Positions 1 to 32,000 of a stretch of DNA of 32,000 nt are shown here, piece after piece (positions within the stretch are counted from its first letter, which is position 1; every line of letters starts with the position of its first letter). The DNA lies in assembly GCA_963528875.1 (NCBI GenBank), contig CAURWT010000002.1:191680-223679 (forward strand), written 5' to 3'. The notes beneath the pieces were generated by a model. It made no database searches. It was not told the DNA's origin and was given only the letters and a program-made list of their open reading frames with translations. The translations under genes were made by a program, and so were the position numbers. This stretch comes from an uncultured Candidatus Saccharimonas sp. (lineage in GTDB: Bacteria > Patescibacteriota > Saccharimonadia > Saccharimonadales > Saccharimonadaceae).

Positions 1-46
1 TATGCTCGTATTATAGCATAAGTTATTTTGATTGTCAATATTTTGG

Positions 47-2944
47 TTAAGCTTTTTTGAGTGAAATTTTTACTTCTGAACCTTCAACTTTTACAATCTG
101 AGCAAAATCAAGTTCATCTTCTGAAATTTCAGCCTTTGTGGCCAAAACTTCTTTCGAAATTTCTTGTTCAAATTTCTTGAACGCGTCAAGGACTTCAGCA
201 TTTTCAGATGTAAAGTTAAGTTCAATTCGATCATCAACATTTAGACCAGCTTTCTTGCGTGTGGCCTGAATGTGGCGAATAATTTCACGCATTAAGCCTT
301 CTGCACGGAGTTCAGGAGTTAACTCAAAGTCAAATTCAACGCTCTCACTACCAAACTCAACACTTTTAACATTTAATTCTTCCATTAAAATTGGCGCGAA
401 ATCAAAAGATTTTGCATTTTGCGGAACTTTTACACTGGCTAGCGGCTGGCGAATTTTTACGCCATTTTTTGCTCGAAGCGCAAGAGCTTCATTCACATAG
501 CCACGGACTTCGGCCATTTCAGCAAGTAAGCTCTCATCAATCTCGCCAGCTCCTGGCCAATCTTTCAAATGAACTGAACCATCGCCAATCATTTTGCTCC
601 AAAGTTCTTCCGCCAAGAAAGGCACGAATGGCGCAAGAATTAACGCAAGATAGCTCAAAACATAGTGGAGCGTTTGATAAGCTTGAAGTTTATCGGCACC
701 GTTTTCGCTCTTCCAGAAACGACGTCGTGAACGGCGTACAAACCAGTTTGAAGCGTCATCGAGGAACGGCAAAACACCTTCAAGAGCGCGTGGAATATTA
801 TAAACATTCATATTTTCACTAATTTCGTTTCGAAGCTCATGAACACGGCTCACAATCCATTTATCAAGCGGATTTTCAAGATCTTTCGAAGGATCTTTGA
901 GTTCGCCGTTAAATTCCCAACCGTCAACACTTGCATACATCGTGAAGAAATCATACATATTCCAAATCATCGAAAGTTTGCGTGCAACATCCGAAACATC
1001 TTTGTCGTGAAGTGCAAAATCTTCACCATTCAAAAGTGGGCTCGTTAGCAACAAGAATCGCAAACTGTCGGCTGAATATTGGTCCATTAGTTCGTTAGGA
1101 TCGGTATAATTACCAAGCGATTTACTCATTTTTCGGCCATCATTTCCAGCAACAACACCGGTTGTAATCACATTTTTAAAGGCATTTTTACCGAACAAAG
1201 CAGTATTTACCGCATGAACATAATAGAACCACGCACGAACCTGACCAATATATTCAACAATAAAATCACCTGGGAAATTCTTTTCGAACTTTTCTTTGTT
1301 TTCGAAAGGATAATGGAACTGCGCAAATGGCATTGAACCACTTTCAAACCAACAGTCAAGCACTTTATCAATTCGAGTGTATTTTTCGCCATCAATTTCG
1401 AAAGTAATTTCATCAACCCAAGGTCGATGGTAATCTTCAAGTTCCACGCCGCTCAATTCTTTAAGCTCGGCATAAGAACCAACCACGCGAATCTTACCGC
1501 TTTCAGACTTCCAAACTGGCATTGCTGTCGCCCAAAAACGGTCGCGCGACAAATTCCAATCTGGTGCGGCTTCAAGATTTTTTTCGAAACGACCGTGCTT
1601 CAAGTGTGCTGGGAACCAGTTAATATTTTCATTTTGTTCAATCATTAGCTCTTTTTGACCTTGAATATCAAAGAACCAACTTGGGTGTGCTCGATACATC
1701 AATCGGTGACCTGTTCGTGGATTGTGTGGGTATTCGTGGCGAATGTAATCGATTCTCCAAACTACACCACGTTCTTTCAAGATTTTCGCTAATGGCTTAT
1801 TAAATTCCCACACATCTTCACCAGCAAATTCGCCGTCAATATATTTTCCGTATTCATCTAAAACGTGAAAAACTGGAATTCCATATTTTTTACCAAAGTT
1901 AAAGTCTTCTTCGCCATAAGCTGGTGCCGAGTGGACAATTCCCGTTCCACTTTCAAGAGAAACATAGTCTGCACCCCAAACTTTATAAGCATTCTCTTCA
2001 CCTTCACCAGAATATTTCGAATCTTCAGAAAGTGGTTCGTATCTCAAACCAATCAAATCCACGCCATCAATCAAATTGACAATTTCGAAAGGAATCGGTT
2101 GTTTTTTTTCATCAACAAAAACTTTTTCGAGCAAATCTTTTGCCAAAATGAAGAATTCATCACCAACTTTTACTTTTGCGTAGGTAATTTCAGGATTCAC
2201 AAACAAGCCCATATTGGCCGGCAAAGTCCAAGGAGTCGTTGTCCAAGCGAGCATTGCAGTTTTATCTTTTGAGCCTTCTGCATCTTCGAAATCTTTCAAC
2301 CAAAATTTTACAAAAACGCTTGGGTCGGTAACAGTTTTATAGGCGTCGTTATCCATTGTAACTTCACTTTTCGAAAGTGGAGTTGCCCACGCCGTGTCAT
2401 ACATTAGAACGCGTTCACCTTCGTAAATTTTACCCTTTTCGTAAAGAGTTTTGAATGCCCACCAAACAGACTCCATAAAATCTTTATCCATCGTTTTGTA
2501 AGCATTTTTAAATTCAACCCAGCGGCCAATGCGATCAATCGTATTTTCCCAAAGCGCCGCATTCGAAACCATGCTTTCGCGCGCAGTCGTAATATATTCG
2601 GCGAGCGAAATTTTTTCACCAACTTCGTGCCGAGAAGTGATACCGAGCTTTTTCTCAACAAAGTTTTCGGCTGGCAAACCGTGCGTATCCCAACCCCAAC
2701 GGCGTTCAACTCTTTTGCCAAGCATCGTTTGATAGCGCGGAACAGCATCTTTTACGATTGAGCTAAGGAGTGTCCCGTGGTGTGGCACGCCTGTGATAAA
2801 TGGAGGGCCATCATAAAACACGAAGGTGTTATCTTCGCTACGATTTTCAACTGATTGCTCGAAAGTTTTTTCTGCTTTCCAACGCGCCAAAACATCGGCT
2901 TCGTATTCTTTTGCTCGTCTTCTTGAATTTGCTTGAAATTTCAT
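47..2944 (-). CDS. ileS: Isoleucyl-tRNA synthetase (type 2 / eukaryote-like form)
   Basis: 965-aa ORF. Class I aaRS signatures are present: YDGPPFITGVPHHGT (HIGH region), WDTHGLP and KMSKSLGN (KMSKS). An AGGAGG SD lies 4 nt upstream of the ATG and overlaps the TAG stop of the upstream ORF. Confidence 0.9.
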   Translation of the reverse strand: MKFQANSRRRAKEYEADVLARWKAEKTFEQSVENRSEDNTFVFYDGPPFITGVPHHGTLLSSIVKDAVPRYQTMLGKRVERRWGWDTHGLPAENFVEKKLGITSRHEVGEKISLAEYITTARESMVSNAALWENTIDRIGRWVEFKNAYKTMDKDFMESVWWAFKTLYEKGKIYEGERVLMYDTAWATPLSKSEVTMDNDAYKTVTDPSVFVKFWLKDFEDAEGSKDKTAMLAWTTTPWTLPANMGLFVNPEITYAKVKVGDEFFILAKDLLEKVFVDEKKQPIPFEIVNLIDGVDLIGLRYEPLSEDSKYSGEGEENAYKVWGADYVSLESGTGIVHSAPAYGEEDFNFGKKYGIPVFHVLDEYGKYIDGEFAGEDVWEFNKPLAKILKERGVVWRIDYIRHEYPHNPRTGHRLMYRAHPSWFFDIQGQKELMIEQNENINWFPAHLKHGRFEKNLEAAPDWNLSRDRFWATAMPVWKSESGKIRVVGSYAELKELSGVELEDYHRPWVDEITFEIDGEKYTRIDKVLDCWFESGSMPFAQFHYPFENKEKFEKNFPGDFIVEYIGQVRAWFYYVHAVNTALFGKNAFKNVITTGVVAGNDGRKMSKSLGNYTDPNELMDQYSADSLRFLLLTSPLLNGEDFALHDKDVSDVARKLSMIWNMYDFFTMYASVDGWEFNGELKDPSKDLENPLDKWIVSRVHELRNEISENMNVYNIPRALEGVLPFLDDASNWFVRRSRRRFWKSENGADKLQAYQTLHYVLSYLALILAPFVPFLAEELWSKMIGDGSVHLKDWPGAGEIDESLLAEMAEVRGYVNEALALRAKNGVKIRQPLASVKVPQNAKSFDFAPILMEELNVKSVEFGSESVEFDFELTPELRAEGLMREIIRHIQATRKKAGLNVDDRIELNFTSENAEVLDAFKKFEQEISKEVLATKAEISEDELDFAQIVKVEGSEVKISLKKA

Positions 2945-2952
2945 TATTCCTC

Positions 2953-3882
2953 CTATGAATTTACTTTATAGCTTAGTTTCATCATTTCTTTTGCAGTTTC
3001 TAATTGGTCGATACTATCTATTTTTATTTGATAACAGCCAGTAGCCCAATGTCCTTTTTTCGAAACATCTTCAATATCGAAATATATTTTTGGATCAAAA
3101 TCAGAACGTTCAATATTAAGATTTAAATATAGAGAGTTTTTCTGAACAATAATACTAAAAATATTTTTCTTTCTAACTTTAAAAGCCAAATACGTCTTCT
3201 TCACATCTGGTTGAATTTCTGGACTAATATTCTCAGCAAAATCTTTCAATTCCCAATAAAACTCCTGAATAGAATCCGAGCCTCTAGACACTAGTTCGTC
3301 TTCACTATAGTTGACAATTTCCTTGAGCACAGTTTTCTCGTCATTACTATTTTTTGCTATATTCGCTTGGCTTTTTTGACTTCTACCCTTTTTCATACCC
3401 TTTTGTAAGTACTCCACAATATCGCCATATTTCCTAAATTCATATAGTTCAACTGGGAAATTCTCGGTAGTATATTCGCTTGCTCTAAGCTGGTATTCAG
3501 TGAATTTTGGAGAAATAAGAATTACGCGCGACTGAGACCAATCGATTTCTGGTATTCCTCCTCCGTTTTTCTCAATAAATTTTAAAATAAAAGCTTCTTT
3601 ATTTTTCAACATCAACGATAAGTAAGCCAGACCTTGATCTGCAACAGAATCACTTTTAATTTTTTTATATTCAATGATTACAAAACTATTACTCTCATCG
3701 TCAAATGCCAAAGTATCTATCCGTAAATTGTCAACAGCAAACTCTGTTTCTATAAATCTTAACCCAAAAACCTCTTCAAGATTGTCTTCAGTCATTTTTT
3801 GAATATCTTTCTCAAGATATTTCTGAGAAACGTTCTCTTGTTTGATAGCTGTTAATTTTTCATTGTTCAATCTATAAAGCAT
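2953..3882 (-). CDS. Hypothetical protein with an N-terminal NucS/DUF91-like PD-(D/E)xK nuclease motif and a C-terminal DUF5655-like domain
   Basis: The ORF track gives 2953..3912 with a GTG start. I prefer the ATG at 3882 (MLYRL...), which is preceded by the SD GGAGAGGAG. The motif RIDTLAFDDESNSFVIIEYKKIKSDSVADQGLAYL fits the D..(D/E)xK..Q..Y pattern of NucS-like nucleases. The stop overlaps the ileS SD, so the two genes are co-transcribed. The domain names are recalled from memory, not searched. Confidence 0.6.
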   Translation of the reverse strand: MLYRLNNEKLTAIKQENVSQKYLEKDIQKMTEDNLEEVFGLRFIETEFAVDNLRIDTLAFDDESNSFVIIEYKKIKSDSVADQGLAYLSLMLKNKEAFILKFIEKNGGGIPEIDWSQSRVILISPKFTEYQLRASEYTTENFPVELYEFRKYGDIVEYLQKGMKKGRSQKSQANIAKNSNDEKTVLKEIVNYSEDELVSRGSDSIQEFYWELKDFAENISPEIQPDVKKTYLAFKVRKKNIFSIIVQKNSLYLNLNIERSDFDPKIYFDIEDVSKKGHWATGCYQIKIDSIDQLETAKEMMKLSYKVNS

Positions 3883-3903
3883 GTTTTTCTCCTCTCCTAA
3901 ATT

Positions 3904-4100
3904 AAAAATCACCTCTTTTAGACTCGAGAACCAAGCAAGCTCGGCGATACCATCTCGATTCCAAAAGAAGTGATTCTTTTAGCCCTTAATTTTAGCTTTC
4001 ACGGAGCTTTCCCGCCCAGTTCTAATCAGTTTTCGAAACCTTTCTTCTGGGAGCTTCGCGGTTGATAGCCGCTCATTCATCAAAATAAAACGCTTTTATG
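3904..4100 (-). promoter_or_regulatory. T-box-like riboswitch leader (Ile specifier AUC) upstream of the nuclease-like ORF and ileS
   Basis: Read on the minus strand. A GA/K-turn-like UGAUGAAUGA precedes the hairpin GCGG-CUAUCAA-CCGC, which carries AUC plus a purine in its loop (AUC = plus-strand 4064-4066). An F-box-like CCGUGA follows. The antiterminator-type element is UCGAGA / 7-nt bulge UGGUAUC / GCCGAG-CUUG-CUUGGU / UCUCGA (3958-3924). It is nested in an outer helix AUCACUUCUUUUGG / CUAAAAGAGGUGAU followed by UUUUU. Confidence 0.6.
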
Positions 4101-4106
4101 ATTTTT

Positions 4107-4135
4107 ATTTTATCAAAATTTAAAAATATTTTCAA
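4107..4135 (-). promoter_or_regulatory. Sigma70-type promoter for the T-box leader
   Basis: On the minus strand: TTGAAA (4135-4130), 17 nt, then TGaTAAAAT with the -10 hexamer at 4112-4107. Confidence 0.55.
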
Positions 4136-4309
4136 GCTTTTAAGTGTTTTATTTATTACTATCCTTCGGACAGCTAAATAAAACCGACACGACACTATTA
4201 TTTACTACTTTTAGAAATTTCCAACATTTCATCTGCGAGCTTTTTAGTGCCTTAGATTGCGATTGTCGCCTGTAAACCCTCCGAGCATCTCATCTTTAAA
4301 GCTTAATTA

Positions 4310-4347
4310 GTTGCCATATCCCTTAATAATTTAGAATATGACATAAT
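4310..4347 (+). repeat. Orphan degenerate CRISPR repeat
   Basis: The sequence gttgccatatcccttaataatttagaatatgacataat compares with the array repeat gttatagttccctaacaatttagaatatgatataat. The 3' 21 nt differ at two positions. The 5' part is diverged and carries a 1-2 nt indel. It lies 663 bp from repeat 1. Confidence 0.8.
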
Positions 4348-4364
4348 TACAGATGGATATAATA

Positions 4365-4391
4365 AAAATAGTGTAATATTTACACTATTTT
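4365..4391. terminator. Bidirectional hairpin terminator after the small-membrane-protein operon
   Basis: A perfect 12-bp palindrome, aaaatagtgtaa-tat-ttacactatttt. On the minus strand it is followed by TTATTAT. It overlaps the stop of the 76-aa ORF. Confidence 0.6.
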
Positions 4392-4615
4392 AAACTTTGA
4401 GAAACAAGAGATGGTATGGAAGATATAGAAAAATACACAATAATAGCTCCTATAATAGTGATTAGGAATTGAGTAACAACAATAAATGTTATAACATTAA
4501 CATTAGCTTGAATACTTCGTTGAATTTTATATTGAGCTTCTAAATAGTCCTTTTCGGTAAATTCATTTTTTTCTTGCATAAACAACTCCATTAAATTTTT
4601 ATATTTCTGAATCAT
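4385..4615 (-). CDS. Small hypothetical membrane protein (1 predicted TM)
   Basis: 76-aa ORF with a hydrophobic stretch VITFIVVTQFLITIIGAIIVYFSI. The start is uncertain. An internal ATG at 4579 has a GGAG SD 6 nt upstream. I recognise no homology. Confidence 0.45.
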   Translation of the reverse strand: MIQKYKNLMELFMQEKNEFTEKDYLEAQYKIQRSIQANVNVITFIVVTQFLITIIGAIIVYFSISSIPSLVSQSLK

Positions 4616-4970
4616 CAGTATAAGATTTAATTATACGTGATTTCCTGAAATAATAGTAAGGGATCTGTAGGGCAATAAAGAAAAGCCAAACAAATGAAGA
4701 ATTATTTTTTTGTGAATTATACATAAAAAACATAAGCACAAAAAAGAAAGATAGCCATAAAACATGTTTTCGCATTTTAGAAATTTCTTGGCGTATATCG
4801 TGCTTAAGTCGTTGTCTTAAAAGATTTCTTGTCTCAATCGCTAAAGCTTCTTTTTGAGTGTTTTCTTGATATGCATCTGAAGCTTTTCGCTGATTTTCTC
4901 TTGAAGCAAAACTTTTATTTTCTTCAATTTCAATATTATTGTTTAATGGCTCTATTATTTTCTTATCCAT
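4599..4970 (-). CDS. Small hypothetical membrane protein (2 predicted TM)
   Basis: The ORF track gives 4599..4985. The ATG at 4970 (MDKKII...) sits 6 nt downstream of a perfect TATAAT, so I prefer it. Hydrophobic segments are VLWLSFFFVLMFFM and FVWLFFIALQIPYYYF. The N-terminal half is charged. Confidence 0.5.
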   Translation of the reverse strand: MDKKIIEPLNNNIEIEENKSFASRENQRKASDAYQENTQKEALAIETRNLLRQRLKHDIRQEISKMRKHVLWLSFFFVLMFFMYNSQKNNSSFVWLFFIALQIPYYYFRKSRIIKSYTDDSEI

Positions 4971-4976
4971 AATTTC

Positions 4977-5005
4977 ATTATACATTAAGAATAAGCTTAT
5001 TTCAA
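4977..5005 (-). promoter_or_regulatory. Strong promoter for the small-membrane-protein operon, abutting CRISPR repeat 1
   Basis: On the minus strand: TTGAAA (5005-5000), 17 nt, TATAAT (4982-4977), then 6 nt to the ATG at 4970. The -35 box is 5 nt from repeat 1. Confidence 0.6.
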
Positions 5006-5010
5006 TAAAT

Positions 5011-5639
5011 GTTATAGTTCCCTAACAATTTAGAATATGATATAATAATGCCTTCGAAAATGTTTATCGAGAAAGAGTTATAGTTCCCTAACAATTTAGA
5101 ATATGATATAATAATGTATAAGAAACATGGTGTTATGTGTTAGTTATAGTTCCCTAACAATTTAGAATATGATATAATTTTAATACCAGTCTTAATTCCC
5201 ATATCTTGTTATAGTTCCCTAACAATTTAGAATATGATATAATTATATAAATTACCTAAATGCGGACTTGTTGGTTATAGTTCCCTAACAATTTAGAATA
5301 TGATATAATGAATTAGCCGTGAGATTATTTTGTTCAATTGTTATAGTTCCCTAACAATTTAGAATATGATATAATTGAATAGCGGCGAAAATAAACGTTA
5401 TTGAGGTTATAGTTCCCTAACAATTTAGAATATGATATAATCACGTTCATAACCATTGAATAGAGTAAATGGTTATAGTTCCCTAACAATTTAGAATATG
5501 ATATAATGCAAATATTATGGAAAACTCAAGCAAAAAAGTTATAGTTCCCTAACAATTTAGAATATGATATAATAAAATTTTCTTGAATTTTGATCGCATA
5601 CAGGTTATAGTTCCCTAACAATTTAGAATATGATATAAT
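5011..5639 (+). CRISPR. CRISPR array with 10 identical 36-nt repeats and 9 spacers (eight of 30 nt, one of 29 nt)
   Basis: The repeat GTTATAGTTCCCTAACAATTTAGAATATGATATAAT starts at 5011, 5077, 5143, 5208, 5274, 5340, 5406, 5472, 5538 and 5604. The plus orientation is chosen because the repeat starts GTT..., as type II repeats do, and ends in the extended -10 box TGATATAAT. Confidence 0.97.
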
Positions 5640-5646
5640 ACTTGCT

Positions 5647-5676
5647 AAAATCCCCATCTGTTGCGATGGGGTTTTT
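5647..5676. terminator. Bidirectional rho-independent terminator between the array and cas2
   Basis: The hairpin is aaaaTCCCCATC-tgttgc-GATGGGGttttt. There is a U-run on the plus strand and an A-run (U-run on the minus strand) on the other side. Confidence 0.75.
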
Positions 5677-5679
5677 AGT

Positions 5680-6003
5680 TTAAAAAAATGAAAGTTGATC
5701 ATTCGAAACACGCCTTTCTTGCGCAGTTTTTTTACCAGCAATCACATACATATTCGTAAATTGATGCTCTGTTAAATAAATTAGCCGAATCGAACCAACA
5801 TCTGGCGCATTTCTCTTAACACGATTCATATGTTTTTCGGCGGCATCCCTATTCGGGCAAAGCCTCGTGTAAACACTATACTGCAACATATTAAAACCAT
5901 CTTTTAGCAAGAAGTTTCGAAAACGTGTTGCTATTCTTCTTTCTTTTTTACTACCCGTAGGTAGATCAAAAAATACCGCTACTCTCATAAATTTATATGC
6001 CAT
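5680..6003 (-). CDS. cas2: CRISPR-associated endoribonuclease Cas2
   Basis: 107 aa. The N-terminus MRVAVFFDLPTGSKKERRIATRFRNFLLKDGFNMLQYSVY is a typical type II Cas2. An AGAGGAAAG SD is present. The gene is adjacent to cas1 and the array. Confidence 0.93.
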   Translation of the reverse strand: MAYKFMRVAVFFDLPTGSKKERRIATRFRNFLLKDGFNMLQYSVYTRLCPNRDAAEKHMNRVKRNAPDVGSIRLIYLTEHQFTNMYVIAGKKTAQERRVSNDQLSFF

Positions 6004-6038
6004 CTTTCCTCTTTTTGTTTTTATTTTTGTTTTATTTT

Positions 6039-6923
6039 TTATATTTTTGGCAACTCTAGACTACTTGAATCTTTCTTTAAAATACAATCAACAAAACTTT
6101 CAACCGTAATCTCAATTGCATTTTTAATTGCGAATTTTTTACCCTTAATCTTAACCCGAAATTCTAAAACCTCAAGCAAAATCCGGCGTTCTTCTTTCGA
6201 AAGAGCCGAATCTTCTTTTTCGAACCCACTCAAACCAAATTTTTTAAGCACGAACAGGTCGATTAGAGGGCGATACGCTTCAATCAAGTCATCTGCTAAA
6301 TTAAAGCTATTTAGCTCATTATGATGAAAAATACCTTGCGAAACTACCAGCCCACGAGCCGCCAAATGCCGTGCCAACCCTGTGCGAACAAGCGCATAGC
6401 TGTAATTTAATGCCGAATTATACCACATTGGCCGACGACGGGTTGCGTCATCAAGAAGCTGTGAAAAGTAGTCGCGTGCGGCTAAAGACTCACGATTAGC
6501 GGAATCTCCAGATTTAACTTCACTTGCACATTTTCGAAGATATTCATCATTTAAGCCAAAATATTTTAAAACATCAGCCTGATTAGAAATTTTTCGAATA
6601 ATATTATTCTGCCAAATCTGTTTTTTGAGTGGAATCTTCATCTCAATTTGCTGGCGAGATACTTTAGCCTGCCGCGAATGTTGAGAATATGGTAAAACTA
6701 TGGCCGTAGGAAGATGCTTCTGATCACAAATCACAACGCTCACTGCTCGAGAAGAGAGCTCATTTAATAGATTTGTGGTTAAGTTTAAACCATAATTATC
6801 AATTATTAACGAGTCGATATCTTCAATCGGAATCGAAACGTCTTCTTCTTGCGAAATTAAGAGCCGGTTATTTTTAACGCTTAGTCGAGCGGGATTTTCG
6901 ATAGAAATAATGCGCCACGCCAT
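6039..6923 (-). CDS. cas1: CRISPR-associated endonuclease Cas1 (type II)
   Basis: The ORF track gives 6039..6932 with a GTG start. The ATG at 6923 overlaps the cas9 stop as TAATG, so I prefer it. Length (about 294 aa) and position between cas9 and cas2 fit a type II Cas1. Confidence 0.92.
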   Translation of the reverse strand: MAWRIISIENPARLSVKNNRLLISQEEDVSIPIEDIDSLIIDNYGLNLTTNLLNELSSRAVSVVICDQKHLPTAIVLPYSQHSRQAKVSRQQIEMKIPLKKQIWQNNIIRKISNQADVLKYFGLNDEYLRKCASEVKSGDSANRESLAARDYFSQLLDDATRRRPMWYNSALNYSYALVRTGLARHLAARGLVVSQGIFHHNELNSFNLADDLIEAYRPLIDLFVLKKFGLSGFEKEDSALSKEERRILLEVLEFRVKIKGKKFAIKNAIEITVESFVDCILKKDSSSLELPKI

Positions 6924-9900
6924 TAAATCCACCTATAATTATCGCCCAGAACGGAGATATCGTAGCGTTCAATTGAAGTTATTGTACCACCAGAAATTCT
7001 ATCAGTATTCTTCTTATCTGCTTTATCGTGACCTATTAAAGATATTCTACCACTATCTATATCATAGCCAACATAATAACCCTCAACAATCTTATTTCCT
7101 GCATAAATCCGCACATAATCATTTGGATACAACGAAAATTGCTTGACAAATCCATTTTCTTCAGTCGCAAAAATCTTACCTTTTTCATCGCGAATTTTAT
7201 TAAAATCGGCTTTTTCTGCCACACTTCGCCCATTTGGCGTTGGTAAAATTTCAACTTTTTTAGCATTCAACAGATGCGCATAAATTGGCGAAAAATAGTA
7301 TTCAAATTCGCCCTTGTAATTTTTGCGCTTAAACACATCCAACCGAATCGTATCACCGTTATTAACAAAAGCTTTACCTTTGTTAATTAAGAAACCGCTT
7401 TTTGAATTTTGCGTATCATAAACCTTAATTGAGCGAACAATATTACCGCGACCACCATTTTTTGTTGGTTTATAAACTGGGTTGCTTGGGTCGCCAAAAG
7501 CTTTTTCTGGTTTATTACCAAACTTATTTAATCGTGCTTTTAAGATCTCATATAAGGCTGGGTCCGTTTCACTAACTGGTGATTTTTTAAGTATTTCTAA
7601 TTTTACTTTTGTTAATCGGATTCGTTGTTTCCGTGCTATAGCCGGCTTTCCTTCCGAATCTACGTAACCTTCGACAATTTTCGGTGAACGGATCGTTTCT
7701 TCATTAATATTACCCTTTCCCGAGCGTTTTGGCATTCTTGAAACGAAAATAGGCGTTGTTCTATTTCGAAAATCTTCATCATAATTCTCAAGACCAATTA
7801 GTTCGTTGCGAAGCTCCATTGGCGATTCATAATGAGCAGTCCTTTTTCGAACTTCTTTTCCAAAATCTTTCCACGGTTCAATATCCTCAAAGGTCTGTTC
7901 AAAATCCGCTCGACTAAAAATTTCACCCGTTATTTTATCAATAACTTCATCTTCCGCCGAATATTTAAAAAGTTCAAAATATTTGTTCAGGCGTGAAATT
8001 TTTTGAATAACACTTTGGTCGATCGCAGCAATTATACAGGCATCCGTAGCGTGATGAAGGTTGTTTTCTTCGCGATCCTTTGAGCCCACACGCCAAATAC
8101 GGCGCAAATAAGAAGTTATTGAACCATTCGGCACAATCACTCGCTGAGCTGGATTTTCATTCTCAATTTTAGCAAATTTCAAATTCTTACGAAGATATTG
8201 GCTTAAGAACTTTGAAATATATCGCGTATCATTTAACGCACGGCTATTCCAATCTTCTTTTGGTGGAACTTTCGCAAGCAATCGTTCTTTCTTTCGAAAA
8301 GGAAGGTTCATTGAATTTATGCGTGCCTCAAAATCAGCCCATCGGCTTTCATTAGCACCCCAAGCTTCGAAAGGTGCTAAATTACCTTTTTGGCGGTTTT
8401 CTTCAGTGAAAACTAAAACTTTATTTATTAAGCTGTCATTTCCGCAGCGAGAGAATGGAATGATGTGATCAATTTCGGCATAATGCTCATTGGAAAATAG
8501 ATTTTCTAAAACAAGACTTTTTCCAGAATAAACGCATTTTCCGTTTTGTTGTTCATAAAGTTTAAATTTGGTAATTTGTAGGCCGGTTGGCGAAGGAACA
8601 TTAAACTCGTTTTGAAGTCGCTCTTTAATACTTTCGTTGTAACTGGCATTTGCTTTTTGAGTTTTTTTAATTTTTTCACGTTCTTTAAAATTTTTAGCTA
8701 AATCACCCGCAGCTTCAATTTTAATTTGATATGGTGCGCCATATTCTCTGATAATGGCATTTACAACTTTAACAGTCTGCGAAACCGCCCGTTTAACAAC
8801 AGGATTTGTAATTTGAGCTGATTCTTCTTTCGAAAGGGGCGGAAGCTTGTTTTTATCCCCGGAAAGCTGCTGTTTTGTATCGTAGCCTGCATTTTCTGAC
8901 GCATTACGATATGTATCACCTTTCAATAAAAATGGCAAGATTTTTCTAAGCGCCTTAAATGACAAATGGCCAAAACCGCTAACATTAATCATCATCAATG
9001 TTTCAACTGCATCTTTACTTAAATTAAGCTTCGAAATCTCTTTTCGCAAATTTTCATCATCTTTATTACATGAAAGAATTTCACCAAGTTCATCTAGCAT
9101 TCTATAATTATTGTCACAAACTTTTTGCCAATCTTCTGGAGTGTTTGAAAGAACAGCTTTAACCTTATGATAAAAAGAAAGTTCACCGAATTTATTTTCT
9201 TCACCGTTATTTTTGCTATCTTTTTTAATCTCGCCACGAATCATATTTGCTGGAAAGCTAAAGTTTTCATCTTTTTTATAACCTAAAACTTCACGGATGT
9301 GTTGATATTTCAGCGCTTTAATATCCTTAGCTTTTTCAATAACTTTTGAAATTTCTTCTTCCGTTAGACCGCGCTCCTTGTTGTTTATTACAACCCTTAA
9401 GTGCGCTAAGTTTTCTGCCAAACGAAACATCTCGAAACTATAACTCGCTTTTGGCGCACGAAATTCAGATTTCTCGAGACTACACTTTCCGCGCATTTTC
9501 ATAATTAATTCACTAGTTATAAATGGGCGTTGCGAAAAAATTCCGTTAAAATTACCTTCCTTTTCGTTTCCAAAAAGGAGAAAATTAATCTTTTCATCTG
9601 AAAGCTTCAAGCCAAATTCTTTTTGAATTTTTAAAATAAGCTTCGCTTCATCTTCGAAATTCGCCCGCACGAAAGAATTGCTGTAATCTTCAGCTTTATT
9701 CCTTTTGTGAGCTATAAATTTTTCATTCGAATTTAACGCACTAGCAACAGTTTTATACTCTTTGAGTAACTTCTCGTTTTTTGAAATTGCTGAAAGAACT
9801 TTCGAATTTTCTTTATCGTTTTCTTCGGCAGATTTTCGATTACTTTTATATCCACGATGTTTAGCAATGTGATATAAACCAACAAAGAGTTCCTCGTTCG

Positions 9901-10228
9901 AGATCTTCTCATTCAACGCCTTTTCTCGAATTTTATATGGATCAAGTTTATTTCCTGGCTTTAAAAGCTCTTCAATTTGTTCTTTAGCTAATAGATTATT
10001 ATCTCTGAAGAATCTTTTAATAAAATTTAACCGCTGACGGCGACGCTTCAATCTTCTTCTTGTTGAGCGAGCTGTTCGCCGAGCTTCAGACAGACTTTTA
10101 CCATCTTTCGGGTTTTCTGGTTTTTCGAAAATCCGAACGCCAACTTTTTCGATTCTTTTGTTATCTTCATCGATTATAGCCCAACCAATTGAGGTCGTAC
10201 CTATATCTAAACCTATTGAGTACTTCAT
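6923..10228 (-). CDS. cas9: Cas9, type II-C size class (1101 aa), with all catalytic motifs intact
   Basis: RuvC-I is MKYSIGLDIGTTSIGWAII. The Arg-rich bridge helix is RRTARSTRRRLKRRRQRL. RuvC-II is IKIEAAGDL. HNH is EIDHIIPFSRCGNDSLINKVLV..ENRQKGN. RuvC-III is HHATDACIIAAI. Confidence 0.97.
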   Translation of the reverse strand: MKYSIGLDIGTTSIGWAIIDEDNKRIEKVGVRIFEKPENPKDGKSLSEARRTARSTRRRLKRRRQRLNFIKRFFRDNNLLAKEQIEELLKPGNKLDPYKIREKALNEKISNEELFVGLYHIAKHRGYKSNRKSAEENDKENSKVLSAISKNEKLLKEYKTVASALNSNEKFIAHKRNKAEDYSNSFVRANFEDEAKLILKIQKEFGLKLSDEKINFLLFGNEKEGNFNGIFSQRPFITSELIMKMRGKCSLEKSEFRAPKASYSFEMFRLAENLAHLRVVINNKERGLTEEEISKVIEKAKDIKALKYQHIREVLGYKKDENFSFPANMIRGEIKKDSKNNGEENKFGELSFYHKVKAVLSNTPEDWQKVCDNNYRMLDELGEILSCNKDDENLRKEISKLNLSKDAVETLMMINVSGFGHLSFKALRKILPFLLKGDTYRNASENAGYDTKQQLSGDKNKLPPLSKEESAQITNPVVKRAVSQTVKVVNAIIREYGAPYQIKIEAAGDLAKNFKEREKIKKTQKANASYNESIKERLQNEFNVPSPTGLQITKFKLYEQQNGKCVYSGKSLVLENLFSNEHYAEIDHIIPFSRCGNDSLINKVLVFTEENRQKGNLAPFEAWGANESRWADFEARINSMNLPFRKKERLLAKVPPKEDWNSRALNDTRYISKFLSQYLRKNLKFAKIENENPAQRVIVPNGSITSYLRRIWRVGSKDREENNLHHATDACIIAAIDQSVIQKISRLNKYFELFKYSAEDEVIDKITGEIFSRADFEQTFEDIEPWKDFGKEVRKRTAHYESPMELRNELIGLENYDEDFRNRTTPIFVSRMPKRSGKGNINEETIRSPKIVEGYVDSEGKPAIARKQRIRLTKVKLEILKKSPVSETDPALYEILKARLNKFGNKPEKAFGDPSNPVYKPTKNGGRGNIVRSIKVYDTQNSKSGFLINKGKAFVNNGDTIRLDVFKRKNYKGEFEYYFSPIYAHLLNAKKVEILPTPNGRSVAEKADFNKIRDEKGKIFATEENGFVKQFSLYPNDYVRIYAGNKIVEGYYVGYDIDSGRISLIGHDKADKKNTDRISGGTITSIERYDISVLGDNYRWI

Positions 10229-13799: not shown

Positions 13800-13885
13800 T
13801 GGTGCTGGGAGAAAGATTCGAACTTTCGAAGGCATCTGCCGACAGATTTACAGTCTGTTGTGTTTGACCGCTTCACTATCCCAGC
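13800..13885 (-). tRNA. tRNA-Tyr (GUA) with a long variable arm and encoded CCA
   Basis: Hand-folded. The acceptor stem is GCTGGGA/TCCCAGC. The anticodon loop is CTGTAAA. The variable arm is CGGCAGATGCCTTC. The T arm is GAAAG-TTCGAAT-CTTTC, followed by A-CCA. Confidence 0.9.
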
Positions 13886-13911
13886 ATTCAACTCTTGTAT
13901 TAAAAAATACT

Positions 13912-13988
13912 TGGAGCCACCTTTCGGATTCGAACCGAAGGCCTGCTGTTTACAAAACAGCTGCTCTAACCAGCTGAGCTAAGGTGGC
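13912..13988 (-). tRNA. tRNA-Thr (UGU) with encoded CCA
   Basis: Hand-folded. The acceptor stem is GCCACCT/AGGTGGC. The D arm is GCTC-AGCTGGTTA-GAGC. The anticodon arm is GCTGT-TTTGTAA-ACAGC. The T arm is TTCGG-TTCGAAT-CCGAA, followed by T-CCA. Confidence 0.9.
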
Positions 13989-23893: not shown

Positions 23894-23903
23894 TAACCTT
23901 GAG

Positions 23904-24060: not shown

Positions 24061-24192
24061 ATAACCACCTCTTTCTCAAGTGCGGAGCGTTCTTAGCTCA
24101 TTCGAAATATTTGTCATTTTAAATATCTGGTTTTAATCCTATCATAATTAAATCTAAAAATCAATGATTTTATAGCTTTTTTACCCTAAAAA

Positions 24193-24201
24193 TGGTATAA
24201 T
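24193..24201 (+). promoter_or_regulatory. Extended -10 promoter of def-fmt (leaderless or near-leaderless)
   Basis: TGGTATAAT lies 8 nt upstream of the def ATG (24210). No SD is present. Confidence 0.55.
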
Positions 24202-24209
24202 AAAAAATA

Positions 24210-25676: not shown

Positions 25677-25687
25677 TTTTACAAAGA

Positions 25688-25718
25688 AAAAAACCGTGTT
25701 TATTTGCACGGTTTTTTG
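25688..25718. terminator. Bidirectional terminator between fmt and the 137-aa ORF
   Basis: The sequence is aaaaaaAACCGTG-tttatttg-CACGGTTttttt. Confidence 0.75.
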
Positions 25719-25722
25719 AATT

Positions 25723-26136
25723 CTAGCTAAAAATTTTATCAATATTAGCTTTAAGTTCGTCTTGCATTTCCTTCATTACGATTGTTGTAATTTGGTTAAA
25801 ATCTGGGCGATTGATTTCAAGCCATTTCATTGAAGCAAATTCCGCAATCGTTTGGCGATTTTCTTGCCCACCATTTTGTTGAGTGAGTGCTATAAATGCA
25901 CGATCGTTTCGAAAATCTGACACATTAATCATTAGCCAATTATCTACAAACCCTGGAGCGTCATCGATAATTTTTTCAAACTCTTCAAGCTTTTCATTCG
26001 AAAATCCATCTGTTATACGCTCGCCAACACGAGTTTCAAGTTCTTCCTGAACATGTTGTTTAAAAACTGCCGCTTCTTGCGGAGACATTCGTTCAATGCC
26101 AATTCCTTCAAAAAATTTGTCGTCTAATTGAAACAT
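25723..26136 (-). CDS. Hypothetical protein (137 aa, acidic)
   Basis: ORF with coding-like composition and no motif I recognise. Confidence 0.45.
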   Translation of the reverse strand: MFQLDDKFFEGIGIERMSPQEAAVFKQHVQEELETRVGERITDGFSNEKLEEFEKIIDDAPGFVDNWLMINVSDFRNDRAFIALTQQNGGQENRQTIAEFASMKWLEINRPDFNQITTIVMKEMQDELKANIDKIFS

Positions 26137-26210
26137 TCTCTTTTTCCTTGTTTAGTTATTTCTATTTTAGCACAAGCAAAATGTTTTTTCAAATTATTTT
26201 ATTATGCTAT

Positions 26211-27998: not shown

Positions 27999-28092
27999 AC
28001 AACCTCCTCTGGTTTTTATTTTTCTTAAGCTGAAGTTCGGAAACCGATTTCAAAACCGATTTCCGACTATTCAGCGCAAGAATAATTTTGAA

Positions 28093-29160: not shown

Positions 29161-29277
29161 TAGTCTTTAAGACTCCTTCCTTAATTGTATTTCTTTGAAC
29201 ATAGCTAAAATTAACCTGCCCAATAGATTGCTACCATTTTAACATTTTGAACTAAAAAAATCAAGCGTTTTAAAAGG

Positions 29278-29306
29278 TTGAATTTTTATTTTTTTCATCG
29301 TAAAAT
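29278..29306 (+). promoter_or_regulatory. Promoter of the ROK kinase operon, predicted leaderless
   Basis: TTGAAT (29278-29283), 17 nt, TAAAAT (29301-29306), then agagtt (6 nt) to the ATG at 29313. The 6-nt spacer is identical to the one upstream of cas9. Confidence 0.55.
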
Positions 29307-29312
29307 AGAGTT

Positions 29313-30137
29313 ATGATTATTGCAATTGATACGGGCGGAACAAAAACTTTATTGGCGGGATTTTCGAAAGAAGGCAAACTTTTAAAATCTTTCGAATTTC
29401 AAACGCCAAAATCTCAGCAAAAATATCTTGAAATTATTGAAAAAGTTATTAAAAAAGAATTTTCGAAACAACTAAAATCGGGTGAAATCCAAGCAATTTC
29501 TTGTGCCGAACCTGGAATTATTGAAAACGGTGTAATTTTGTGGGCAAAAAATTTACGCTGGCAGAATTTTAATGTAAAAGCTGAACTTTCAAAAATATTT
29601 CCAAATATTAAAATTTTAGTTGAAAACGACGCTAATCTTGCTGGGCTTTTCGAAAGTAAAAAATTCAAAAATAAAGCTCAAAACATTCTTTATGTTACAC
29701 TTTCAACGGGAATTGGTTCAGGCATAATAACAGATGGAAAAATCAACCAAGGCCTAAAAAATAGCGAAATTGGACGAATCCCAATTGAATTTGATGGCCG
29801 AGTGCGAGAATGGGAAGAATTTGCGAGTGCGCGGGCAATTTTTAATGTTTATGGTAAATATGCAAGCGAGATTTCAAAACTACGACAATGGCAAAATATT
29901 GCAGATAGAATTTCGCGTGGATTTTTAGTGATAATCCCAGTAATTCAGCCAGAGGTAATTATTATCGGTGGTAGCCTTGGTGAAAATTTCAAAAAATTCG
30001 ATCTTTTTCTAGAACAAATTGTTCGCGAAAACCTGCCCGAAGGAATTTCTTGCCCAAAAATTGTTCAAGCTCAAAAACCGCGCGAAGCAGTGATTTATGG
30101 CTGTTTTGAATCTGCAAAAGAGGCGTTGAATTTTTAA
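29313..30137 (+). CDS. ROK-family / glucokinase-like sugar kinase
   Basis: The motifs IAIDTGGTKT, ENDANLAGL and LSTGIGSGII are present. The protein is 274 aa. Confidence 0.75.
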   Translation: MIIAIDTGGTKTLLAGFSKEGKLLKSFEFQTPKSQQKYLEIIEKVIKKEFSKQLKSGEIQAISCAEPGIIENGVILWAKNLRWQNFNVKAELSKIFPNIKILVENDANLAGLFESKKFKNKAQNILYVTLSTGIGSGIITDGKINQGLKNSEIGRIPIEFDGRVREWEEFASARAIFNVYGKYASEISKLRQWQNIADRISRGFLVIIPVIQPEVIIIGGSLGENFKKFDLFLEQIVRENLPEGISCPKIVQAQKPREAVIYGCFESAKEALNF

Positions 30138-30589
30138 TGAATTTGGAATTTGTTGGAAAATTGCGCAAAGACTTTCCTCAATTCAATTTCGAAGAAAGCG
30201 ATGATTTCTATTGGTCAAAGAAAGAAAATACAATTTTTTTCGAACCAGAATCTTCAAATTTTCATCTGTTAATTTTACATGAATTAGCCCACGCGTTACT
30301 TGGTCACGAAGATTTTTGGCTTGATATTGAACTCCTTAAAATGGAGTCTGAAGCTTGGGAACTCGTTCGAAATAACCTTACAAGTCAATATGGGTTTTGT
30401 TTTAGTTCAAATTTAGCTGAAAGCAAGCTTGACACTTACCGAGATTGGCTACATAAAAGAAGCCTCTGCCCAAAATGCAAACTAAATGGTTTTCAACAAA
30501 AAGATTTAACATATAAATGCCCCGCTTGCGGAACTATCTGGCAAAATAACGATTCTCGTTTTAAAAGTTTGCGGCGAAAAATAAAATAA
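30137..30589 (+). CDS. Hypothetical HExxH metallopeptidase-like protein (ImmA/IrrE-like) with a C-terminal zinc ribbon
   Basis: The motifs HELAHALLGHE and CPKC...CPAC are present. The start overlaps the ROK stop as TAATG. Confidence 0.55.
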   Translation: MNLEFVGKLRKDFPQFNFEESDDFYWSKKENTIFFEPESSNFHLLILHELAHALLGHEDFWLDIELLKMESEAWELVRNNLTSQYGFCFSSNLAESKLDTYRDWLHKRSLCPKCKLNGFQQKDLTYKCPACGTIWQNNDSRFKSLRRKIK

Positions 30590-30622
30590 AATCACGCAAT
30601 ATTTCGAAAGCGTGATTTTATT
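30589..30622. terminator. Bidirectional terminator
   Basis: The sequence is AAATCACGC-aatatttcgaaa-GCGTGATTT, flanked by A- and T-rich runs. Confidence 0.65.
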
Positions 30623-30633
30623 TGTGTATCTTT

Positions 30634-30885
30634 TTAAGCTACACGAACTTCAATTTTTGATTCTTCAGACTCTTCAGTCATTGAAATCTTTGTTGTAGCT
30701 GGGCCACGACGGCTAATTCGACCACCCTTTTGCCCCGCGATTTTTGCAAGTTCACGGTTTGCGGCAAATCCACCAGTTGTTCCATTTTTACCGCCTTTTT
30801 GCCCAATTCGTGAATAAAAATCTTTTCCATATTTTGCTTTATTAGTTGCAGCTGCCTTTGCGCCGCCCGCCTTTGTTCCGGCCAT
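30634..30885 (-). CDS. KGG-repeat general stress protein (GsiB-like)
   Basis: 83 aa. Repeated GQKGG units (IGQKGGKNG and AGQKGGRIS) fit the stress-induced KGG motif family. An AAAGGAGA SD is present. Confidence 0.75.
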   Translation of the reverse strand: MAGTKAGGAKAAATNKAKYGKDFYSRIGQKGGKNGTTGGFAANRELAKIAGQKGGRISRRGPATTKISMTEESEESKIEVRVA

Positions 30886-30935
30886 TTAATCTCCTTTGTT
30901 TTGTTAAAATCTAATCTATTTTTGATTATGTTTTA

Positions 30936-30944
30936 ATTATAGCA
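30936..30944 (-). promoter_or_regulatory. Extended -10 promoter for the KGG protein gene
   Basis: On the minus strand: TGCTATAAT, about 50 nt upstream of the ATG at 30885. Confidence 0.5.
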
Positions 30945-31037
30945 CAACTTATGCTTTTTGTCAATATTTACATAAGAGCTTTTTTATTTTATTATAATAT
31001 TTTTGTATTTCTAATCTGTTTATGTTATAATTTTCTT

Positions 31038-31895
31038 ATGTTTTTTCGAATAAATAATAAGTTCTACCGTAAGTTGCCTAAGCAAATTTGTATATTTTTC
31101 TTACCAAAATCAATAAAAACTAAAATACAAAATAAAGCGATTCTAGAGCTTCAAAAGCAACTTTCGAATACTTTACCTAATTTTACCAAAAACGAGCTAG
31201 AAGAGTATAAAAATAGTATTATAAATGTAAAATTCTGGCACGGAACTGGAGGCTTTGAGTATGATTCTAGTAGAAATATTACACCAATTTTTGATAATAT
31301 TTTAAAAAACGGATTAAAAACTCAGCAAGATGACTACTTAATTATTTATTCTAAAAAATTAAGTATGAAATCAATATCTCTAGTAACTAAAAGAATTATC
31401 GCTAGATGCTATGCAGACAACCATAATTTTAAGAATCCTAAAACTTTTCGTTTTGGTGATAGTATTTTTTGGATTGTGCGACATTACACGAAAATGTATA
31501 TTTTAGCATATACGATACTTGCTCCACGTTCACTTGTGAATATTCTTAGTTGGAGAAAGAAAAATAAAATAAATTCAAAAAAATCTTGGAGTGGAAAAGT
31601 AAATAAAACTTGTAAAAATACATGGGAATCTTTTGAAAAATATTCTGACATTAGAGAGAATTTCCCGGTAATTCTTGGTATTAAAAAGCTAAATAAAATT
31701 GCAAAATTACCAAAAATATTTAGCGAAACTGAAATTCGTTCTTTAGAGGATATTCCTTTTGAAGATATTATTCACATAGAAATTCCTCTTGAAAAATATA
31801 ATGAATTAAATAATAAAATTCGAAAATATAACCAAAAAGTAAAAATATTTCCTATTGAATTAGGTGAAGTATTTGAATATAAAAGTATAAAATAA
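31038..31895 (+). CDS. Hypothetical protein (285 aa), very AT-rich gene
   Basis: The ORF track gives 30951..31895. The ATG at 31038 (MFFRINNKF...) lies 6 nt downstream of TGtTATAAT (-10 at 31026-31031), with TTGTAT at -35. The upstream 29 codons are a Phe/Ile/Tyr-rich promoter sequence. I recognise no motif. Confidence 0.5.
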   Translation: MFFRINNKFYRKLPKQICIFFLPKSIKTKIQNKAILELQKQLSNTLPNFTKNELEEYKNSIINVKFWHGTGGFEYDSSRNITPIFDNILKNGLKTQQDDYLIIYSKKLSMKSISLVTKRIIARCYADNHNFKNPKTFRFGDSIFWIVRHYTKMYILAYTILAPRSLVNILSWRKKNKINSKKSWSGKVNKTCKNTWESFEKYSDIRENFPVILGIKKLNKIAKLPKIFSETEIRSLEDIPFEDIIHIEIPLEKYNELNNKIRKYNQKVKIFPIELGEVFEYKSIK

Positions 31896-31951
31896 GTTGT
31901 GACACTATTTCTTACTAGTATTTTTTAAAGCCAAAAAAATAAATAACGAAA

Positions 31952-31980
31952 AAACTCCACCGACTAGGAGGAGTTTTTTA
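31952..31980 (+). terminator. Rho-independent terminator
   Basis: The sequence is AAAACTCC-accgactagga-GGAGTTTTTT. Confidence 0.7.
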
Positions 31981-32000
31981 TAATTCGGCACCGTGCTATT

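Follow-up and report, generated by a model that had tools for sequence, protein, structure and literature searches.

A hyper-abundant TTCGAA palindrome in a genus-level clade of Saccharibacteria

The palindrome TTCGAA is strongly over-represented in a 32,000-base stretch (GC 35.7%) from the genome of an uncultured Candidatus Saccharimonas sp. This whole stretch is called the window below. Saccharibacteria are tiny bacteria that live on other bacteria, and their genomes are typically about 1 Mb or less. The TTCGAA excess is not local to the window and is confined to one small, genus-level clade. Within this clade, a force acting on double-stranded DNA very probably favours the fixation and retention of the exact word. 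Counts for the clade come from two unlinked genome regions, the FtsZ region and a region with the order HIT-RlmH-ABC-FtsX, and approximately 200 kb of clade DNA was read in total. The signal is real, strong and unusual and lies in a poorly understood phylum. The literature searched yielded no description of TTCGAA as an over-represented word in bacteria.

Abundance of TTCGAA and its independence of the encoded proteins

The window contains 105 exact TTCGAA sites, which are spread over its whole length with a mean spacing of 304 bp. The preliminary description of this DNA had counted roughly 100. A further 25 sites lie in the 10 kb preceding the window start. Base composition alone predicts 10.7 sites, which agrees with the 10-15 given in that description. 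Dinucleotide-preserving shuffles yield 25.7 ± 5.7 sites (maximum 43; 0 of 100 shuffles reach 105) and Markov models yield 53 (order 3) and 85.7 (order 4). The TT, AA and CG dinucleotides are each over-represented in the window, so that naive fold estimates are inflated. The excess over context-aware nulls is about 3-4-fold rather than the 7-10-fold that the composition-only expectation implies.

TTCGAA nevertheless ranks first among the 4096 hexamers of the window. Its maximal-order Markov z-score is 6.2, not near zero. The second-commonest word of the form NNCGNN has 21 copies. The non-palindromic permutations TTCGAT (15 copies, z -4.6) and ATCGAA (8 copies, z -3.4) are both below expectation, so the enrichment that the preliminary description proposed to look for in them is absent. 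Other one-letter neighbours are mostly mildly depleted, and seven of nine classes are more so than in the outgroups. TTTGAA and TTCAAA show no special depletion (0.81 of expectation in the window versus 0.91 in the outgroups).

The flanks of the word carry little information. T precedes 69% of the sites and A follows 64%, which gives a weak tTTCGAAa consensus with nothing conserved further out; the TTTCGAAA form accounts for 45 of the 105 sites. Because there is no flank information past positions -1 and +1, TTCGAA is not part of a longer repeat. An interspersed element resembling repetitive extragenic palindromes (REP) or miniature inverted-repeat transposable elements (MITE) is ruled out on the same observation. 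The same enrichment is present in independent assemblies from several studies and therefore is not an assembly artefact. Over 42 kb of contiguous sequence of the window genome, the spacing of sites is more even than random (coefficient of variation 0.805, P = 0.006).

Ninety-five sites are in protein-coding sequence (3.4/kb) and ten are outside it (2.3/kb). Four of these ten are in tRNA genes or the CRISPR array and six are intergenic. The coding sites fall in codon phases 0, 1 and 2 in the proportions 34/26/35, and the peptides specified by phase (FE, x-Arg-x and x-Ser-Lys/Asn) are unrelated to one another. When synonymous codons are shuffled within each gene, which keeps the protein and the codon usage, 33.1 ± 4.8 sites remain (maximum 49 in 1000 shuffles) versus the 95 observed. 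Codon choice depends on context in each phase. Phe-Glu is encoded TTC-GAA in 34 of 65 cases (52%), while elsewhere one Phe codon in five (20%) is TTC, and no preference for TTC is seen ahead of GAT, GAC or GAG. TCG supplies 54% of Ser codons in the context T|Ser|AA versus 16% elsewhere, and CGA supplies 68% of Arg codons in the context TT|Arg|A versus 23% elsewhere. Intergenic DNA without the tRNAs and the CRISPR array (3,514 bp, GC 31%) contains 6 sites versus 1.2 expected from composition, an excess of about 5-fold. The preliminary description had reported sites in all codon phases and a recurrent TTC-GAA spelling of Phe-Glu, had asked for a codon-pair test of the Phe-Glu and Ser-Lys contexts, and had read the pattern as selection on the DNA word rather than on the protein. 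Phases, synonymous shuffles, context-dependent codons and intergenic excess all support that view.

The word has a counterpart in the proteins. Residues encoded by the motif are 39% identical to the outgroups versus 54% for other residues (p = 7e-5). Phe-Glu dipeptides in orthologous columns are 2.3 times more frequent in the window, the outgroup median being 0.44 times the window value. At most motif sites in conserved genes, the residues of the clade and the outgroups differ: FE corresponds to YE, LE or FD in the outgroups, Arg to Lys, and Ser to Ala or Val. These alignments show that TTCGAA has reshaped proteins and lies at weakly constrained positions.

Distribution, conservation and mobile DNA

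Among GTDB species genomes, the relatives of the window FtsZ are Saccharibacteria or other Patescibacteria only. The closest relatives of the FtsZ region are locus L001, from a 'Candidatus Saccharimonas sp.' metagenome-assembled genome (MAG) with 94% nucleotide identity to the window, and L002, from a second MAG with approximately 79% identity (87% in the ileS gene). Loci L090-95 are 84% identical to the window and L096 is about 70% identical. TTCGAA density in the FtsZ region is 3.3/kb in the window, 3.0/kb in L001, 2.1-2.4/kb in L090-95 and 4.0/kb in L002. In 78 other loci from Saccharibacteria or Patescibacteria, some with equally low GC, it is 0-0.8/kb, and in L096 it is 0.28/kb. TTCGAA is the top hexamer in every clade locus (z 7-15). 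No hexamer in any non-clade locus reaches a comparable z-score, and the top words there are mostly ordinary coding words.

The second region was reached through L242, which was among the matches listed in a taxon-blind pattern scan of metagenome contigs. This locus is saccharibacterial by its ABC-transporter homologues, and those homologues gave the HIT-RlmH-ABC-FtsX region. Densities in this region are graded: 4.2/kb in L242, 3.25/kb in L340, 2.8/kb in L342, about 1.9/kb in L344 and L345, 1.1/kb in L349 and 0.3-0.5/kb in L346-348. Sites are locally clustered in some loci. Four TTCGAA lie within 62 nt of L002 where it aligns to window positions 20676-20738 (the PriA N-terminus), and seven lie within 1 kb of L349 (9,000-10,000). 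Spacing in these loci is therefore over-dispersed, unlike that of the window genome.

Among the matches listed in dense-pattern scans of IMG/VR and metagenomes, most are local clusters or repeats. One viral contig, IMGVR_UViG_3300044959_000303 (107 kb), has 79 TTCGAA in 12.3 kb (78,728-91,038; L200 and L201; 6-8/kb) at 36% GC. It encodes several HNH homing endonucleases. TCGA and CG are frequent there whatever the context, TTTGAA hardly occurs, and no sequence similarity to the window is seen. The contig may be unrelated to the enrichment in the clade, or it may come from a phage whose host is rich in TTCGAA.

Conservation of TTCGAA sites is about double that of other hexamers. The word is retained at the aligned position for 87% of window sites in L001, 67% in L090 and 58% in L002. 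In the same order of loci, other hexamers are retained at 74%, 41% and 29%, and other NNCGNN words at 60%, 34% and 26%. As a matched control, the four TT..AA flank positions of TTCGAA were compared with those of all other TTNNAA words. These flanks changed in 0 of 220 cases in L001 versus 3.5% in the other words (Fisher p = 0.0015), in 5.3% versus 14.7% in L090 (Fisher p = 6e-4) and in 7.8% versus 21.1% in L002 (Fisher p = 1e-5). The flanks of TTCGAA thus change about 2.7-fold less than those of other TTNNAA words.

Strains of the window species differ at only seven motif-affecting positions. Where the window and L001 differ at a motif, the change is a CpG transition to TTCAAA or TTTGAA, with a single exception at 3141 that involves two changes. 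CpG loss inside the motif (7/55, 12.7%) compares with 15-29% in other contexts, and gain of TTCGAA from TTYRAA (3/34) compares with 3.5-8% in other contexts. These rates are ordinary, with loss if anything lower than elsewhere, so that no more than a 2-fold excess can be explained by a bias acting on the CpG alone. The preliminary description had listed a strong context-dependent mutational bias among the candidate causes, alongside an uptake or recognition sequence and a methylation motif. A purely mutational cause is the least supported of the three, since the whole word including its flanks is conserved and the CpG transition rates of the motif are unremarkable.

Other features of substitution in the window were also observed. 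About 20% of non-motif CpGs in positions 1-22052 differ from L001 by a transition versus 5.6% of all bases, and CpG is over-represented overall (rho 1.31) despite this lability. On the plus strand, G>A differences from L001 number 91 versus 56 C>T, which indicates strand-asymmetric substitution. This strand is C-rich (C 6527, G 4893).

Mobile islands in the clade are poor in TTCGAA, with 0-2 sites where 5-16 are expected at local density. The gap between nrdR and ileS is a defence-island hotspot (window 2953-10228; L001; L002 12352-14864; L090 10001-12357; L096 10001-12507). The window gap contains a DUF5655 gene and a type II CRISPR-Cas9 system with ten copies of the 36-nt repeat GTTATAGTTCCCTAACAATTTAGAATATGATATAAT, cas2, cas1 and an 1101-aa cas9. 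In the 94%-identical L001, the gap is without cas genes and without an insert. In L002, L090-95 and the non-clade L096, it contains an EcoRI-family methylase with a GmrSD_N/HNH operon. This methylase island (2.5 kb) is 91% nucleotide-identical between L002 and L096. The core genes of these two lineages have diverged much further, with identities to the window of only about 79% (L002) and 70% (L096). From the surrounding density, about 10 TTCGAA would be expected in the island of L002 and about 5.6 in that of L090, which contain 2 and 0, respectively. The AlwI island of L340 (2,000-7,000; about 5 kb), which contains RE_AlwI, two Dam-like methyltransferases and a serine recombinase, has 2 sites, and the 3 kb of a large resolvase element in L342 (18,000-20,800) have none. 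The window cas genes differ from the methylase and AlwI islands of the sister genomes in having the native motif density. From the motif-poor islands it follows that the enrichment is a slowly acquired property of resident DNA.

The EcoRI-family methylase is excluded as the cause of the enrichment. L096 has a 95%-identical copy of the EcoRI-family methylase at the same locus, yet its TTCGAA density remains at the background value given above. The operon is missing at this locus in the window and L001, and the island itself is motif-poor. The AlwI-type Dam-like methyltransferases of L340 are likewise set aside as candidates because they sit on a motif-poor mobile island. Pfam scans of window open reading frames of at least 90 aa found no methyltransferase.

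Two of 20 distinct CRISPR spacers from the window array and the array of a sister strain contain TTCGAA. This is 3.3/kb, which equals the host density and hints, on a small number, that the spacer sources are also TTCGAA-rich. An exact search of IMG/VR with two spacers found no protospacer, and the 20 spacers had no real match in 120 pattern-selected viral loci.

Sites and elements in the window

Exact protein look-ups identify the window as the final 32,000 bases of a Saccharibacteria scaffold of 374,812 bp (ENA ERZ28636975, scaffold_8). By Pfam, the protein and RNA genes of the window include IleRS, the type II CRISPR-Cas system (cas9, cas1, cas2 and the 10 repeats), NrdR, FtsZ, FtsA, tRNA-Tyr and tRNA-Thr. 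Further genes encode a CDF transporter, MAP, Adk, YqeY, a GT4 glycosyltransferase, RecJ, PriA, Def and Fmt, and a short IF-2, an S1-domain protein and a ROK kinase are also present. The first positions of the TTCGAA sites (no strand assigned) and the elements discussed here are as follows.

Sites, part 1: 153, 829, 885, 1283, 1301, 1397, 1583, 2016, 2084, 2285, 2370, 2562, 3059, 4032, 5053, 5702, 5916, 6196, 6219, 6533, 6593, 7765, 7846, 8293, 8366, 8829, 9030, 9653, 9726, 9801
Sites, part 2: 10124, 10781, 11348, 11408, 11989, 12729, 12741, 12859, 12991, 13109, 13213, 13817, 13825, 13929, 14314, 14479, 14935, 14963, 15470, 15636, 15867, 16647, 16841, 17003, 17047, 17374, 17406, 17570, 17810
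Sites, part 3: 18532, 18586, 18702, 18967, 19060, 19232, 19693, 19880, 20694, 21086, 21189, 21755, 22030, 22352, 23167, 23422, 23484, 23497, 24101, 24412, 24480, 24504, 24598, 24867
Sites, part 4: 25256, 25473, 25908, 25997, 26396, 26594, 27074, 27852, 28301, 28653, 28893, 29363, 29391, 29462, 29649, 30188, 30239, 30366, 30603, 31045, 31163, 31819
47..2944, minus strand: isoleucyl-tRNA synthetase (IleRS) gene, with 12 TTCGAA sites in phases 0, 1 and 2
153, IleRS gene, minus strand: site read as Ile-Ser-Lys (..T TCG AAA)
1283..1306, minus strand: two Phe-Glu (TTC-GAA) sites in the IleRS gene, at universally conserved FE dipeptides
5048..5077, no strand assigned: CRISPR spacer 1, with TTCGAA at 5053
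5680..10228, minus strand: cas2-cas1-cas9, with 16 TTCGAA sites at 3.0-6.2/kb, a density as in core genes
13800..13988, minus strand: tRNA-Tyr (13800-13885; sites 13817 and 13825) and tRNA-Thr (site 13929), with T-loop copies in both
30590..30628, plus strand: terminator-like hairpin AAAATCACGC[AATATTTCGAAA]GCGTGATTTT with a T run after it, identified by direct reading of the letters
4032..4037, 14963, 17003, 17047, 24101 and 30603, no strand assigned: intergenic TTCGAA, six in all

In the IleRS gene, 11 of the 12 sites are also TTCGAA in the sister species L002, and the outgroup orthologues have YE, FD, FA, VAN or gaps at several of them. The two conserved FE dipeptides at 1283..1306 are mostly TTT-GAA or TTT-GAG in the outgroups and TTC-GAA in the window, L001 and L002. 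The individual sites named in the preliminary description are where it placed them: the Phe-Glu pair at 1283 and 1301 and the Ser-Lys site at 153 in IleRS, the intergenic copies at 4032 and 14963, the copy at 5053 in the first CRISPR spacer and the terminator-loop copy at 30603. The tRNA T-loop copies that it cited are present in both tRNAs and are to be discounted: they are the universal GTTCGAATC T-loop sequence and no part of the enrichment. The tRNA-Tyr gene has an unusual second TTCGAA 8 nt upstream of its T-loop copy, where the variable arm joins the T-stem (ccTTCGAAaGTTCGAAtc).

The hairpin at 30590..30628 has a 10-bp stem and a 12-nt loop, AATATTTCGAAA, which holds the TTTCGAAA form of site 30603. 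A consensus terminator scan missed it because the loop is longer than 8 nt. The hairpin adjoins the end of gene 30137-30589, which encodes a 150-aa hypothetical protein with a C-terminal zinc-ribbon-like region. A non-significant Pfam match of this protein (E = 0.07) to the AID/APOBEC-like deaminase family is probably noise. Several independent assemblies (L084-L087) end at the same point, 100-900 bp past gene 30951-31895 (the window continues from 31895 to 32000). These shared breakpoints suggest a repeat, either an rRNA operon or a mobile element, just outside the window end.

Comparison with known motifs and possible explanations

The closest precedent for TTCGAA is HIP1 (GCGATCGC), together with the alternate highly iterated palindromes (HIPs) of Cyanobacteria (Elhai 2015, PMC4390886; Xu, Lawrence & Durand 2018, PMC5861425). 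Both are short, hyper-abundant palindromes found in all frames of coding DNA and in intergenic DNA. Both have a 6-bp core with weaker outer positions that extend it to an 8-mer, and both are conserved in position between related genomes above background. Each is lineage-specific, with other words or none in other lineages. In its abundance, its dispersion through all frames and non-coding DNA, and its positional conservation, TTCGAA behaves like a HIP. HIPs are also distributed quasi-periodically on a 10-90 kb scale; the 42 kb of contiguous sequence of the window genome shows slightly even spacing at short range. It is an analogue of HIP1 and not a member: the word differs and so does the phylum, since FtsZ, IleRS and other window proteins have Saccharibacteria relatives. 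TTCGAA is AT-rich with a hexamer core, whereas HIP1 is a GC-rich octamer, and it occurs in Patescibacteria/Saccharibacteria with a genome of about 1 Mb or less. It is limited to a genus-level clade, whereas HIP1 is spread across its phylum. The fold excess is 3-10x versus 15-300x for HIP1, although the absolute density (about 3/kb) is as high or higher. A cognate orphan methyltransferase, which is a key association of HIPs, was not found in the approximately 200 kb of clade DNA. HIP1 sites are conserved and associated with orphan methyltransferases, raise transformation when methylated, and have been proposed as uptake sequences (PMC5861425, PMC4390886, bioRxiv 10.1101/2024.09.10.611283, bioRxiv 10.64898/2026.06.24.733823).

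TTCGAA also resembles the uptake signal sequences (USS) of Pasteurellaceae and the DNA uptake sequences (DUS) of Neisseriaceae. Like these, it is dispersed at about one or more copies per kb, and it is somewhat evenly spaced in the window genome. Most copies are within genes, where they fall at protein positions of lower conservation and leave their mark on the proteome, and DNA acquired recently has too few of them. The host phylum, like USS and DUS hosts, is naturally competent (PMC10633639). Known uptake signals are 9-12 nt long, non-palindromic and read by a defined receptor such as the ComP pilin, in contrast to the shorter, palindromic TTCGAA. A hexamer also discriminates weakly, except against GC-rich host DNA.

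The word is the recognition site of restriction systems of the BstBI/AsuII type (TT^CGAA), and TTCGAA-specific modification exists in nature. Palindromic restriction sites are normally avoided, as the preliminary description correctly remarked, and TTCGAA is enriched. Genuine avoidance is seen for other words. TCGA occurs once in the 21,233 bases of L072, from a sheep-jejunum Saccharibacteria MAG, and 20-230 times in other loci; this extreme avoidance points to a restriction system of the TaqI type in that lineage. L002 is strongly depleted in GATC, with 12 copies in 21 kb where about 78 are expected. GAATTC is 2-3-fold under-represented in the window, L001 and L002, against an expectation inflated by abundant GAA and TTC trimers.

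Under the force on the DNA word proposed above, TTCGAA would accumulate slowly in long-resident DNA wherever coding allows, through synonymous codons first and then through conservative replacements at variable positions. The whole word would be preserved once present, and recently acquired mobile DNA would not yet be supplied with it. Gain and retention of the full word argue against a purely mutational or CpG-only origin, which matches the reasoning of Xu et al. for HIP1 (PMC5861425). As to what the force is, TTCGAA may be read by a clade-specific recognition protein, plausibly in methylated form, and serve as a mark of self in DNA uptake and/or recombination during natural transformation. 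This proposal is put forward tentatively, at somewhat less than even probability. Alleles that carry the word would then be transmitted preferentially, by molecular drive plus selection, as proposed for USS and DUS and recently for cyanobacterial HIP1. The proposal draws on the natural transformability of Saccharibacteria, which proceeds through ComEC in a study that mentions no uptake sequence (PMC10633639). It also draws on the weakly constrained placement, the deficit in foreign DNA and the mildly even spacing in the window genome, which are classic signatures of uptake sequences, and on the recent link of HIP1, the closest analogue, to methylation-dependent transformation. It is possible, though rather doubtful, that TTCGAA is the first self-recognition word for uptake or recombination described in the Candidate Phyla Radiation, a palindromic hexamer that may be read methylated. 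Such a word would let an epibiotic, competent bacterium separate conspecific DNA from the GC-rich DNA of its host, where the identity of the host is assumed from general Saccharibacteria biology.

Several observations weigh against a role in self-recognition. The clade DNA read contained no TTCGAA-specific methyltransferase, reader protein or uptake receptor; the only methyltransferases seen in it are the EcoRI-family and AlwI-type Dam-like enzymes, all on motif-poor islands. The even spacing of the window genome is absent in L002 and L090. The information in the word is a 6-bp palindrome with weak positions at ±1, so that at 6-8 bp it is shorter and less specific than the asymmetric uptake signals, and its fold excess falls short of that reported for HIP1. 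Site conservation reflects constraint or drive, and it cannot tell uptake drive from another chromosomal function. The counts describe two genome regions rather than whole genomes.

A chromosome-maintenance mark independent of transformation is an unlikely alternative. An orphan TTCGAA methyltransferase would mark the DNA for strand discrimination in mismatch repair, as in Dam/MutH systems and in the model of Elhai for HIPs, for replication timing or for nucleoid organisation. Dense sites would be under selection since the function that reads the methyl group would require one every few hundred bases. Like GATC and the motifs of orphan methyltransferases, TTCGAA is a short palindrome that occurs once per few hundred bases and could carry a hemimethylation mark. 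Its frequency, about one per 300 bp, is similar to that of GATC where Dam and MutH operate, and the densities of HIPs are, in the argument of Elhai, compatible with repair over a range of about 1 kb (PMC4390886). The conserved sites and the somewhat even spacing in the window genome are consistent with such a mark, although the spacing does not extend to L002 and L090. The motif CpG is not hypermutable, which fits N6-methyladenine (m6A) or N4-methylcytosine (m4C) methylation, or no C5 methylation, and m6A methylation of TTCGAA exists in other prokaryotes. The clade DNA read revealed no such methyltransferase and no nicking or MutH-like enzyme. Selection per site for repair would be tiny, yet the motif drove amino-acid replacements. 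TTCGAA is also strongly enriched, whereas GATC is not known to be markedly enriched relative to expectation in Dam organisms.

The word could instead be a functionless by-product of biased repair or mutation, a reading of similarly low probability. A Vsr-like activity, for example, could convert T:G mismatches in TT(T/C)GAA to C:G, or a methyl-directed mismatch-repair ratchet could fix new copies of the word. Very-short-patch (VSP) repair by Dcm and Vsr, which leaves an excess of CCWGG and a deficit of CTAG in E. coli, shifts oligonucleotide abundance around a methyltransferase target, and recent turnover of TTCGAA likewise consists mainly of CpG transitions between it and TTCAAA or TTTGAA. 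The ratio of gain to loss at the motif CpG is about twice that of other CpGs. The graded enrichment and its absence from recent islands are as expected for a slow, cumulative process, and the model of Elhai permits over-representation as an epiphenomenon. The footprint of VSP repair is not seen, however: TTTGAA and TTCAAA are barely depleted, the CpG rates are within 2-fold of other contexts, and the flank positions, which lie beyond the reach of CpG-directed repair, evolve about 2.7 times slower than in matched TTNNAA words. Longer-distance gains have also come from many neighbours (CTCGAA, TTCGAG, TTCGCA, TTCTAA, TACGAA and others). A VSP-type model of 5-methylcytosine deamination and repair is rejected as the sole cause because its product words are not specifically depleted, the CpG rates are ordinary and the flanks are constrained. 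An effect of proteins, RNA or composition is very improbable, and the comparisons of codon phases, shuffles and outgroups have already largely refuted it. Under it, the excess would stem from favoured peptides or codon pairs, from an mRNA motif such as an RNase site or UUCG loop, or simply from an AT-rich base content combined with context effects on CpG. Phe-Glu is indeed enriched in proteins, TT, AA and CG are each over-represented, and strand analysis cannot exclude a reading at the RNA level for a palindrome. The three phases are about equal and encode unrelated peptides, though, and the excess outlasts synonymous shuffling and Markov models to order 4. TTC is unpreferred before the other acidic codons tested (GAT, GAC and GAG), intergenic DNA is enriched too, and relatives of similar GC lack the excess. 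The remainder of the probability is assigned to explanations outside those listed.

For thirty years hyper-abundant palindromes, known essentially from Cyanobacteria through HIP1, have lacked an agreed explanation, and selection, repair bias and uptake are still debated. The TTCGAA clade is an independent case in very small genomes, with a density graded from about 4/kb to background and with non-enriched sister lineages. The clade is therefore an ideal setting in which to find the responsible gene by phylogenetic profiling, and selection versus drive is approachable with population data from existing metagenomes. TTCGAA density separates native from recently acquired DNA in the clade, which is of use for contig binning, island spotting and possibly phage-host assignment. 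If the word promotes transformation, it would give better genetic tools for Saccharibacteria. A force at the DNA level measurably reshapes the proteins of a reduced genome. If TTCGAA does serve in self-recognition, it would be a second, independently evolved system of the HIP1 type, in a tiny genome, in which drive has doubled the frequency of a dipeptide in the proteome. The responsible gene would then be findable by simple comparative genomics, given the close non-enriched relatives.

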